A DNA stretch of 64,000 nucleotides from Rickettsiales bacterium (GTDB taxonomy: Bacteria > Pseudomonadota > Alphaproteobacteria > Rickettsiales > CANDYO01). The DNA is taken from assembly GCA_965228885.1 (NCBI GenBank), contig OZ245841.1:21168-85167 (forward strand), read 5' to 3'. The notes below the pieces were generated by a model. The model saw only the letters and a list, made by a program, of their open reading frames with translations. It was not told the origin of the DNA and searched no databases. This document shows positions 38,737-40,928 of this stretch, in pieces (within the stretch, counting starts at the first letter, position 1; each line of letters begins with the position of its first letter). A program made the translations under genes and the position numbers.

Positions 38737-40928
38737 TCTACTATTTTCGTTAAATTAGCTGATCTACCTGGGAACACTAGATCTTGTTTTACAAACACTT
38801 TCAATGAAGTTCCTTGATCTATAGTGATAGTTGGTGGCATATCCATAGTTTTCTCAATAACATCTGTTCCTATCGAACTAATATTATCAACTGCATCATC
38901 ATATGCATCATCTAAAGCAGTACTATCATCGGTGTTAGTAGTACTTCCATCTGTATTGGTGGTGGTAGTTGAAGTAGTACTATCACTAGCTCCATTTCTA
39001 TCTGCATATTCAGCTACACCTATATTAATCAAGCTAACCATCATAGCTGTGGTGAAATTACGTAAAATATGATTATCAACATCACCTGCTGAACCAGACC
39101 TACCTATAGCATCAATACCAGGAGAATCCACTTCAATGTCTATACCATCAGGCCTAATAACCCTAGACCATACAATTTGTACTCTGGCTTGACCGAAAGT
39201 TATCTCAGAAGAATAACTTCCTATTAGTCTTGAACCTCTATTTATCAATATATTGGTACCAGATTCAGAATATACATCCCTAGATACAATAGCTCTAATT
39301 GCCCCTGGAAGATCGGTATTAATTGCTGTTTCTAGTACGGCATCAATAATTTTACCTTCGGCGATAACTCTCTGTAGATCCCCTATATGGGTTGCCACAG
39401 TTTGGTCAGTATTACGCTCCAATATAGTTAATGATTTACCATCTGAGTTCTTATTTCTACTACCTCCTCCTCCGGCTCCTCCAACCATCATTCCAGATGT
39501 CATTCTTGCTTTCTTTCTTGCAGCTTCAGCAGCAGCTCTAGCCTCTGCTTCTTTATCAATTGAAGCCACATTAACTCCACTCGCTTGCAGAGGTTTAATT
39601 CCACCACTCATTGGCGGCGGAGCCGTTGGTGGTGCAACAGCCACAGATGGAGCCGGCGGAGGCGCTGGCGGCTCAGACAAAGTGGGAAGTTCTAGCGTAG
39701 AAGGTACAGGAGGTGTAGGCAATTCCTTGGGAGCAGGTGGCGTTAAGTCACTCGGCATTTCAGGGAAATCAGGTATATCAGGCACCACGATTGTCTGACC
39801 TGCATCTTCCACAGGAGTTACTATTGGAAGATTTTTATTAATAGTAGACTTCCTTGCATCTAATTCTTCTTGAGACGGCTGTAAGATTTTATAAATTATA
39901 TATACAAAAACTAACACCAACCCAACAAGTATGGCAATACTACTTCCCTTGCTAATTGCAACTTTAGAAATACCTTGATCTACATCTGGCTTTACTTCTT
40001 GATTCTCTTGATTAGAAGCTTTAGGATTGTTTATAACATCTCCATCTAAACTTTCTTGAATATCTTCAATCCTAAAATCATCATCTAAACTTACTTTATC
40101 GCTATTATCTTCTTCTAAGTCATTATGCTCATTAGATGATACGTGATCTTCTTCAGTCCGTTCTTTTTGTACTTCTTCTGGAGAATTTTGTTCTTCTAAG
40201 CTTTTATTTTCTGAGTATTCTTTCAATAAATCTTGTTTTATTTGCTCATAATCTACTTCCCCCTCTTCAGATTCATCGCCATCTTCTTCTAATTCTTCAT
40301 CTTCCTCTTCAGATTCATCGCCATCTTCTTCTAATTCTTCATCCTCTTCTTCAGATTCATCGCCATCTTCTTCTAATTCTTCATCTTCCTCTTCAGATTC
40401 ACCACCATCCTCTTCTACTTCTTCATCTTCCTCTTCAGATTCACCACCATCCTCTTCTACTTCTTCATCTTCCTCTTCAGATTCATCACCATCTTCTTCT
40501 TCATCACCATCTTCTTCTAATTCTTCGTCCTCCTCTTCAGATTCATCACCATCCTCTTCTACCTCTTCATCTTCCTCTTCAGATTCATCACCATCTTCTT
40601 CTACTTCTTTATCTTCCTCTTCAGATTCATCACCATCTTCTTCTACTTCTTCATCTTCCTCTTCAGATTCGTCGCCATCTTCTTCTACTTCTTCATCCTC
40701 CTCTTCAATATCTTTGAACTCCTTTTCAGGTGAAGACTGTAAATTTTCTTGGCTTATTGACTCTTTAGATACGCCCTCTAAATCTTCTTTAGATTCAACA
40801 TAAACTTCTGCACCACTAGATTCATCTTCTTCCCCCAAGATATTTTTCTCTTTTGTATTTTCAGAAGGTTTATTATCTTCAATATTATGATTAGCCTCTT
40901 GATTTTCAGTCTTTTCTTTTTCGGACAT
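38733..40928 (-). CDS. virB10: Type IV secretion protein VirB10 with a long acidic N-terminal extension
   Basis: TM, Pro-rich linker, and TrbI core GKIIDAVLETAINTDLPG...GSRLIG...RVQIVWSR...ITIDQGTSLKVFV. Confidence 0.95.
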   Translation of the reverse strand: MSEKEKTENQEANHNIEDNKPSENTKEKNILGEEDESSGAEVYVESKEDLEGVSKESISQENLQSSPEKEFKDIEEEDEEVEEDGDESEEEDEEVEEDGDESEEEDKEVEEDGDESEEEDEEVEEDGDESEEEDEELEEDGDEEEDGDESEEEDEEVEEDGGESEEEDEEVEEDGGESEEEDEELEEDGDESEEEDEELEEDGDESEEEDEELEEDGDESEEGEVDYEQIKQDLLKEYSENKSLEEQNSPEEVQKERTEEDHVSSNEHNDLEEDNSDKVSLDDDFRIEDIQESLDGDVINNPKASNQENQEVKPDVDQGISKVAISKGSSIAILVGLVLVFVYIIYKILQPSQEELDARKSTINKNLPIVTPVEDAGQTIVVPDIPDFPEMPSDLTPPAPKELPTPPVPSTLELPTLSEPPAPPPAPSVAVAPPTAPPPMSGGIKPLQASGVNVASIDKEAEARAAAEAARKKARMTSGMMVGGAGGGGSRNKNSDGKSLTILERNTDQTVATHIGDLQRVIAEGKIIDAVLETAINTDLPGAIRAIVSRDVYSESGTNILINRGSRLIGSYSSEITFGQARVQIVWSRVIRPDGIDIEVDSPGIDAIGRSGSAGDVDNHILRNFTTAMMVSLINIGVAEYADRNGASDSTTSTTTTNTDGSTTNTDDSTALDDAYDDAVDNISSIGTDVIEKTMDMPPTITIDQGTSLKVFVKQDLVFPGRSANLTKIVE
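40269..40706 (-). repeat. Tandem 42-bp (14-aa) acidic repeat, about 10 copies plus one partial copy, inside virB10
   Basis: EEEDEE(V/L)EEDG(D/G)ES repeated from aa 75 to about aa 220. Confidence 0.95.

Follow-up and report, generated by a model that had tools for sequence, protein, structure and literature searches.

We analysed a 64,000-nucleotide (nt) stretch of the genome of a Rickettsiales bacterium (GenBank assembly GCA_965228885.1, contig OZ245841.1, forward-strand positions 21,168 to 85,167; hereafter the window), and focus on its virB10 gene, which lies in an operon of the rvh (Rickettsiales vir homolog) type IV secretion system (T4SS). VirB10 couples inner-membrane ATPases to the outer-membrane pore. 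We find that 330 residues rich in aspartate and glutamate precede the membrane helix of this VirB10 protein, and that this tail contains a tandem array of a 14-residue unit, which is a species-specific enlargement of an acidic VirB10 tail found throughout the clade. The features of the gene, in window coordinates, are listed here from the N-terminus to the C-terminus of its product.

38733..40928, minus strand: virB10 (rvhB10-like), 731 residues, from the open reading frame (ORF) list and the Pfam TrbI match
40800..40817, minus strand: SGAEVY motif, residues 38-43, common to about eight close relatives (sequences and alignment)
40269..40706, minus strand: tandem array of ten 42-nt units (the fifth, U5, of 39 nt) plus a 21-nt partial unit, residues 75-220, 77% Asp/Glu
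40479..40499, minus strand: partial unit EEDGDES, 21 nt, following the 39-nt U5, from the unit table
40245..40268, minus strand: degenerate last unit EEGEVDYE, probably the seed from which the array grew, leading into the conserved helix motif
40215..40250, minus strand: helix motif YEQIKQDLLKEY, residues 227-238, predicted amphipathic helix
39939..39989, minus strand: membrane-helix-adjacent motif PDVDQGISKVAISKGSS, residues 314-330, nearly invariant PDVDQGxSKVAISKGSS
39882..39950, minus strand: single inner-membrane helix, residues ~327-349, hydropathy maximum 2.75, an AlphaFold2 helix with a predicted local distance difference test score (pLDDT) of about 80
39609..39827, minus strand: proline-rich periplasmic linker, residues ~368-440, prolines invariant in the alignment
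38772..39368, minus strand: TrbI/VirB10 beta-barrel domain, residues 521-719, from Pfam PF03743 and PDB matches

A VirB10 protein in an rvh-type operon

The sole Pfam match of the 731-residue protein is TrbI/VirB10 (PF03743; residues 521-719, E = 7.6e-54), with a score of 182.9 bits against a gathering cut-off of 35, and sequence matches to structures in the PDB (TrwE, VirB10, TraF, ComB10 and CagY) are restricted to residues 378-721. The layout is that of a bitopic VirB10: an N-terminal tail, one membrane helix (a hydropathy scan places the first membrane segment at about residue 330), a proline-rich linker and the barrel. The N-terminal residues M-x-x-K-x-K line up with the starts of homologues in the alignment, which supports the choice of start codon. 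The linker between helix and barrel spans about 170 residues, in which a tandem repeat search found none, and its prolines P368, P383, P386, P389, P392, P398, P406 and P407 are invariant; such a proline-rich tract is typical of VirB10 (PMC2653234). The genes that flank virB10 encode its usual partners.

41415..42182, minus strand: virB8, Pfam VirB8, E = 5.4e-44
40970..41395, minus strand: truncated virB9 (RvhB9b-like), 141 residues, Pfam CagX, N-terminal half only
37735..38736, minus strand: virB11 ATPase, Pfam T2SSE, its start overlapping the virB10 stop by 4 nt

We conclude that the locus is the virB8b-virB9b-virB10-virB11 core of an rvh T4SS. The truncated VirB9b between virB8b and virB10, a hallmark of rvh systems, covers positions 1-104 of the 198 in the CagX profile, and its 141 residues compare with 158 for VirB9b of Rickettsia (PMC2653234). 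The window is part of a closed, single-contig genome of 1.55 Mb that is 99.98% complete; this genome encodes one VirB10 (TrbI domain), one VirD4, four VirB6/TrbL matches and two VirB4 matches, and the duplicated VirB4 and several VirB6 genes lie at separate places, again as in rvh systems. The one departure from the rvh arrangement is that virD4 does not lie directly downstream of virB11; the single virD4 is found at C1:899497-900813, ~840 kb away, and its displacement is a difference in gene order, with the component present.

Anatomy of the tandem array

Tandem Repeats Finder and a unit-by-unit table were used to dissect the array, whose 14-residue unit reads EEEDEE(V/L)EEDG(D/G)ES. Tandem Repeats Finder returns 42-nt arrays with 92-94% matches and a best score of 648, along with higher-order periods of 102, 144 and 186 nt. 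The first four units, U1-U4, are V-units (EEEDEEVEEDGDES) with one E>K change in U3, and are followed by U5, an L-unit of 39 nt. The region of the partial unit behind U5 is an internal 18-nt duplication that preserves the frame and is seen as a period-24 row at 40466-40511. U6 and U7 are GGES units identical to each other, and U8-U10 are L-units with a common GGC codon, U8 being identical to U10. The reading frame is kept throughout because every unit length is a multiple of three. Identity between unit pairs ranges from 86 to 100% (mean 92%, two pairs identical), and the units stand head to tail, as in a variable-number tandem repeat; since pairwise identity falls to 86%, the units are not brand new.

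These data bear out most of an original prediction made from the DNA letters alone: the protein is a VirB10, it carries about ten copies of the unit plus a partial copy ahead of the membrane helix, and its variant blocks are as described and fit stepwise duplication. The same prediction had called the whole ~330-residue extension repeat-built. Its length and acidity stand, but the array accounts for only 148 of the 330 residues (45%).

The nine full units differ at nine distinct variant sites, six synonymous and three nonsynonymous, against a neutral expectation for the synonymous fraction of 0.16-0.28, depending on transition bias (P = 0.0009-0.018). This synonymous excess fits a translated sequence with its amino acids under purifying selection. 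A plus-strand ORF opposite the array (40136-40717), encoding 193 residues of Leu/His/Pro repeats, was rejected as a gene and is a by-product of the repeat.

The array unit has no other copy in the 1.55-Mb genome, the tail contains the most acidic 60-residue stretch among genome ORFs of at least 150 residues, and the array ranks ninth by score among the tandem arrays of the genome. Elsewhere in the genome we find a 48-nt array at C1:732433-734721 (47.7 copies, about 2.3 kb, 88% matching) and a 90-nt array at C1:623310-625604 (25.5 copies, about 2.3 kb, 88% matching); a period of 99 nt is seen in several arrays, which resemble ankyrin repeats.

Charge, predicted disorder and motifs of the tail

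The 330-residue tail is 51% Asp/Glu and carries a net charge of -147. The array contributes -113 of this from its 148 residues (77% Asp/Glu), and the 182 residues that are left when the array is taken out (30% Asp/Glu, net -34) are typical of the clade described below. AlphaFold2 predicts no secondary structure for residues 1-219 (pLDDT 30-37), followed by a helix at residues 222-247 with a pLDDT of up to 86, and the tail is probably, on this model, intrinsically disordered. It should be cytoplasmic, because it lacks a signal peptide and is homologous in position to the N-termini of studied VirB10 proteins.

Three short motifs interrupt this acidic tail: SGAEVY near the N-terminus, the helix motif directly behind the array, and the motif adjoining the membrane helix. 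The helix motif falls in the confidently modelled helix at residues 222-247, and its Y227, L234, E237 and Y238 are nearly invariant in 20 aligned sequences. In the motif at residues 314-330, P314, S321 and V323 are invariant and D315, D317, G319, A324, S326 and S330 nearly so; similar motifs are also present in short-tail Rickettsiales VirB10 proteins.

Long acidic tails are the norm in a VirB10 clade

We compared the protein with its 120 best homologue clusters. In most of these, 26-85 residues precede the membrane helix, with a net charge of about +2 to -16. The closest clusters, P0001-P0023, have tails of 160-243 residues that are 26-41% Asp/Glu and carry a net charge of -28 to -73; 21 of them have a complete N-terminus, P0013 and P0014 being 5'-truncated gene calls. 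The helix motif, with the consensus Y-x-x-L-(K/R)-x-x-L-L-x-E-Y, is present in all 21 long-tail clusters and in none of the 99 others. VirB10 open frames in the five genomes of the same genus measure 598-631 residues, compared with mostly about 400-530 in other families of the order. We also built a tree on the part of the proteins that extends from the membrane helix to the C-terminus. It places all 25 long-tail rows in a single clade of 29 rows with a Shimodaira-Hasegawa-like approximate likelihood ratio test (SH-aLRT) support of 99; three short-tail rows share this clade, two of which look like truncated gene calls. The core-clade tails can be aligned only over short motifs.

Given the clade-wide tail length, charge and helix motif, a long acidic tail with no confidently predicted structure and with short linear motifs is, as judged from the sequences compared, ancestral to the clade. 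The original prediction had taken the VirB10 N-terminus to be usually short, which is right for most homologues and wrong for the protein's own clade, and had itself allowed that long acidic extensions might already be the norm there. Tails of 160-243 residues are indeed the norm, but the extra 148-residue array is special to this genome and absent from its closest relative.

The database relatives all carry the labels uncultured Rickettsiales or Alphaproteobacteria, and a literature search found no description of an acidic N-terminal extension on Rickettsiales VirB10. In most of the proteins in P0001-P0023 the acidic tail is preceded by a short basic cap, for example MDKKKKSK, MVRKSKKK or MAEEEKKSKRKKK, and the corresponding MSEKEKTEN of the window protein is far less basic. 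Long acidic tails of 120-190 residues that lack the YExLK motif also occur in the sister-branch clusters P0048, P0090, P0100 and P0105, three of which have another motif, ISSKYEAE, in common, which points to additional types of tail in uncultured lineages nearby.

The closest relative and repeat turnover

The closest relative (locus L001), with an unchanged gene order, matches the window protein at 83% identity over the part that begins with the membrane helix and ends at the C-terminus. The stretch separating SGAEVY from the helix motif measures about 10 residues there and about 185 in the window protein, and the array is lineage-specific because this relative is without it. At the position where the array ends, directly ahead of the helix motif, relatives have an acidic run; the way in which the degenerate last unit runs into the helix motif suggests that the array may have grown from that run.

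Relatives bear acidic repeats of their own, built from other units and at other positions in the tail. P0011 has six copies of a 9-residue acidic unit, P0004 has three to four copies of PEEALEEEL, and P0002 has a unit of roughly 13 residues directly upstream of the helix motif. In a sister lineage, the 11-residue unit EDHEDEDQLVE is present one, two or four times in P0016, P0017 and P0018: P0016 and P0017 are 100% identical outside the unit and one copy apart, and P0018, 98.8% identical outside the unit, has three copies more than P0016. This is direct evidence, from metagenome assemblies, that acidic arrays of this kind change copy number between near-identical strains in the sister lineage, and it makes plausible the earlier suggestion that the array could serve as a copy-number marker. 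The same three proteins carry the helix motif, as YxxLRxKLLxEY, twice.

A second strain of the species was not found: an exact look-up of the neighbouring VirB9 returned nothing, and a metagenome scan with a 23-nt word spanning a unit junction gave 12 loci, none of them VirB10-related by tblastn.

Comparison of the window with the L001 locus also bears on the flanks of the operon. A 528-residue signal-peptide protein, encoded at 42415-44001 of the window between a TpsB gene and virB8, is absent from L001, and a basic 155-residue ORF after virB11 (37264-37731) was rejected as a clade-wide partner of the acidic tail, since L001 runs from virB11 straight to trxA (the L001 intervals compared with these two are 1194-1685 and 5762-5831). 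These two, one on each side of the virB operon, look like insertions specific to the lineage.

Position of virD4

Among L004-L080, virB11 was detected in 72 short-tail loci, and in 60 of these virD4 comes after it; this order is seen in none of the three long-tail loci (L001-L003) and not in the window. We treat this correlation between virD4 displacement and long tails as a lead and not as evidence, because it concerns one clade and possibly one evolutionary event. The neighbours of virD4 in the genome are an ankyrin-repeat gene and a gene for a 431-residue protein with a basic tail at its end. The idea that VirD4 itself carries a basic extension to match the acidic tail was rejected; it is an ordinary 577-residue VirD4 with an acidic C-terminus.

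Discussion

The array anatomy, the clade distribution, the lack of a confidently predicted structure, the conservation of motifs and the synonymous excess were observed or computed, and the reading of them that we favour, with confidence only slightly better than even, sees in the tail a flexible polyanionic tether showing docking motifs to a cytoplasmic partner, and in the array a near-neutral expansion of the spacer driven by slippage. The tail would then be a clade-wide module, a disordered acidic tether with a few short conserved motifs, among which the amphipathic helix YExLKxxLLKEY, SGAEVY and the motif adjoining the membrane helix would do the docking. Their most likely task would be to hold a cytoplasmic partner in place at the machine's base; candidates for this partner are one of the ATPases (VirB4, VirB11, VirD4), a substrate and an adaptor. 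The ten-unit array would have grown, in this lineage, from the acidic run that adjoins the helix motif on its upstream side. We infer an origin by slipped-strand mispairing or unequal recombination, and the growth would have lengthened the spacer and tripled the negative charge. By analogy with Helicobacter pylori, in which the VirB10 homologue of the Cag T4SS, CagY, has a 5' repeat region (FRR), the array probably varies in copy number and is, within limits, nearly neutral.

Several points weigh against this interpretation. The synonymous excess is based on nine variant sites only. Variability of the array itself is presumptive, as a second strain of the species did not turn up in the searches, and the copy-number differences among P0016-P0018 come from metagenome assemblies (European Nucleotide Archive and Joint Genome Institute), in which repeats can be collapsed by short reads. 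Overall the AlphaFold2 model is of poor quality, the barrel included (mean pLDDT 43, from an alignment of 20 sequences), and low pLDDT is an indirect indicator of disorder. The charges flanking the membrane helix are balanced, so that the positive-inside rule leaves the topology unsettled and the location is assigned by homology. The partners named above are candidates, and the docking role is putative.

An alternative account, which we consider unlikely, is that the array, and perhaps most of the tail, is tolerated junk without function, the product of slippage where length is irrelevant. The tails cannot be aligned between relatives outside the short motifs, the unit and its position vary between lineages, the closest relative does without the array, and a change of copy number in the CagY 5' repeat region has no measured effect (PMC2194252), all of which fits this account; yet a long net-negative tail is retained in all 21 or so clade members despite rapid turnover of its sequence, a conserved helix motif lies inside it, and the variants among the units show a synonymous excess. 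Pure junk accounts for the turnover but leaves these retained features unexplained.

A rather unlikely possibility is that the charge itself does the work by electrostatic capture, with ~14 polyanionic tails per machine forming a brush that would bind basic C-terminal effector signals and feed them to the channel, and with array length setting its capacity. The original prediction had suggested that the tail might bind such signals or act as a gate. The negative charge is extreme and conserved (-147 here, -28 to -73 across the clade), the amino acids of the unit appear constrained, and a basic tail closes the product of the gene that follows virD4; it is established that T4SS substrates of Agrobacterium and Anaplasmataceae carry positively charged C-terminal signals. 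Against this, the characterised systems known to us receive substrate signals at VirD4 and not at VirB10, and the extra charge of the array is not required, because the closest relative lacks it. We consider improbable a more far-reaching version, in which the clade's VirB10 tail is a substrate-handling organ: some 14 disordered polyanionic arms per machine would form an electrostatic funnel round the ATPase base that catches basic C-terminal effector signals, the conserved YExLKxxLLKEY helix would dock on an ATPase, and array length would tune capture radius and capacity. Such a tail would assume part of the receptor function of VirD4, the gene for which no longer lies in the operon in this clade, and would be a mirror image of Legionella DotM, which works with Glu-rich signals.

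Mis-assembly, whether of copy number or order or by a mis-join that created the repeat, is very improbable. Arrays of about 440 nt do exceed the length of short reads, but the genome is closed in one contig at 99.98% completeness and resolves 2.3-kb tandem arrays, the array is in frame with ordered blocks of distinguishable unit variants, and relatives also have acidic repeats in the same tail. [quoted passage not shown]

A clade whose VirB10 tail is 5-10 times longer, keeps its acidity and bears a conserved helix would offer a natural handle on the contacts of the VirB10 N-terminus. In the solved machines known to us, the cytoplasmic tail of VirB10 is short and unresolved. The clade's tail would also bear on substrate recruitment by rvh systems, which serve obligate intracellular bacteria, and the 42-bp array is a candidate marker with which strains of an uncultured symbiont might be told apart. 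Its significance is limited in that the array is probably a near-neutral length variant and that repeat-bearing N-termini of VirB10 homologues are known from CagY.

Comparison with known systems

The protein resembles the VirB10 of other rvh systems (RvhB10) in its TrbI domain, single membrane helix and proline-rich linker, and its setting resembles theirs in the operon core of virB8b, truncated virB9b, virB10 and virB11 and in the duplicated VirB4 and multiple VirB6. VirB10 of Rickettsia typhi has 481 residues (Gillespie et al. 2009, PMC2653234), and insertions in the C-terminal domain, but not an acidic N-terminal extension, have been described for Rickettsia VirB10 (PMC2653234). In Candidatus Aquarickettsia rohweri, VirB10 is the most diverged rvh gene (PMC6863919); the window genome was considered as this species and rejected, with a guanine-plus-cytosine content of 33.1% against 28.4% and a size of 1.55 Mb against 1.28 Mb. 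The differences from other rvh systems are the pre-helix tail, which has 330 residues where most Rickettsiales homologues have tens, and the absence of virD4 after virB11.

VirB10-type proteins can be enlarged elsewhere along their length. Legionella DotG is a giant VirB10-type protein enlarged by tandem repeats in its periplasmic linker. In DotG-type proteins the repeats lie between helix and barrel and are periplasmic, structured and stable in length, whereas the repeat in the window protein is young, is placed in the cytoplasm by homology and lacks a confidently predicted structure.

Two other T4SS components offer a parallel in possible working and not in family. In the F plasmid, TraD has an acidic C-terminal tail that binds TraM, and Legionella DotM binds Glu-rich effector signals; each recruits an oppositely charged partner through a cytoplasmic element that is charged and flexible or exposed, as the VirB10 tail might. 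They are other subunits, the polarity is opposite in DotM, and binding by the VirB10 tail is putative.

The closest precedent, by analogy of layout and behaviour only, is the 5' repeat region of CagY. It is an intrinsically disordered stretch on the cytoplasmic side that occupies residues 5-343, ahead of the inner-membrane helix at 344-365 (PMC10706595); clonal isolates differ in having three or four in-frame copies of a 393-bp unit, its polymerase chain reaction products range from 1.1 to 2.0 kb across 62 strains, and a change in copy number leaves the translocation of CagA and the induction of IL-8 unaffected (PMC2194252). Both proteins thus place a repetitive, disordered region N-terminal to the membrane helix (~340 residues in CagY, with the array at residues 75-220 here). 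The units differ in size (393 bp in CagY, 42 bp here), the repeat regions are without sequence homology (a phmmer match covers only residues 518-721, the VirB10 domain), the periplasmic middle repeat region of CagY, roughly 1000 residues long, is absent here, and secretion system and host biology are unlike. A repetitive, disordered and copy-variable N-terminal region ahead of the helix of a VirB10 homologue is therefore already known from CagY, from which the present case differs in unit, sequence and clade.

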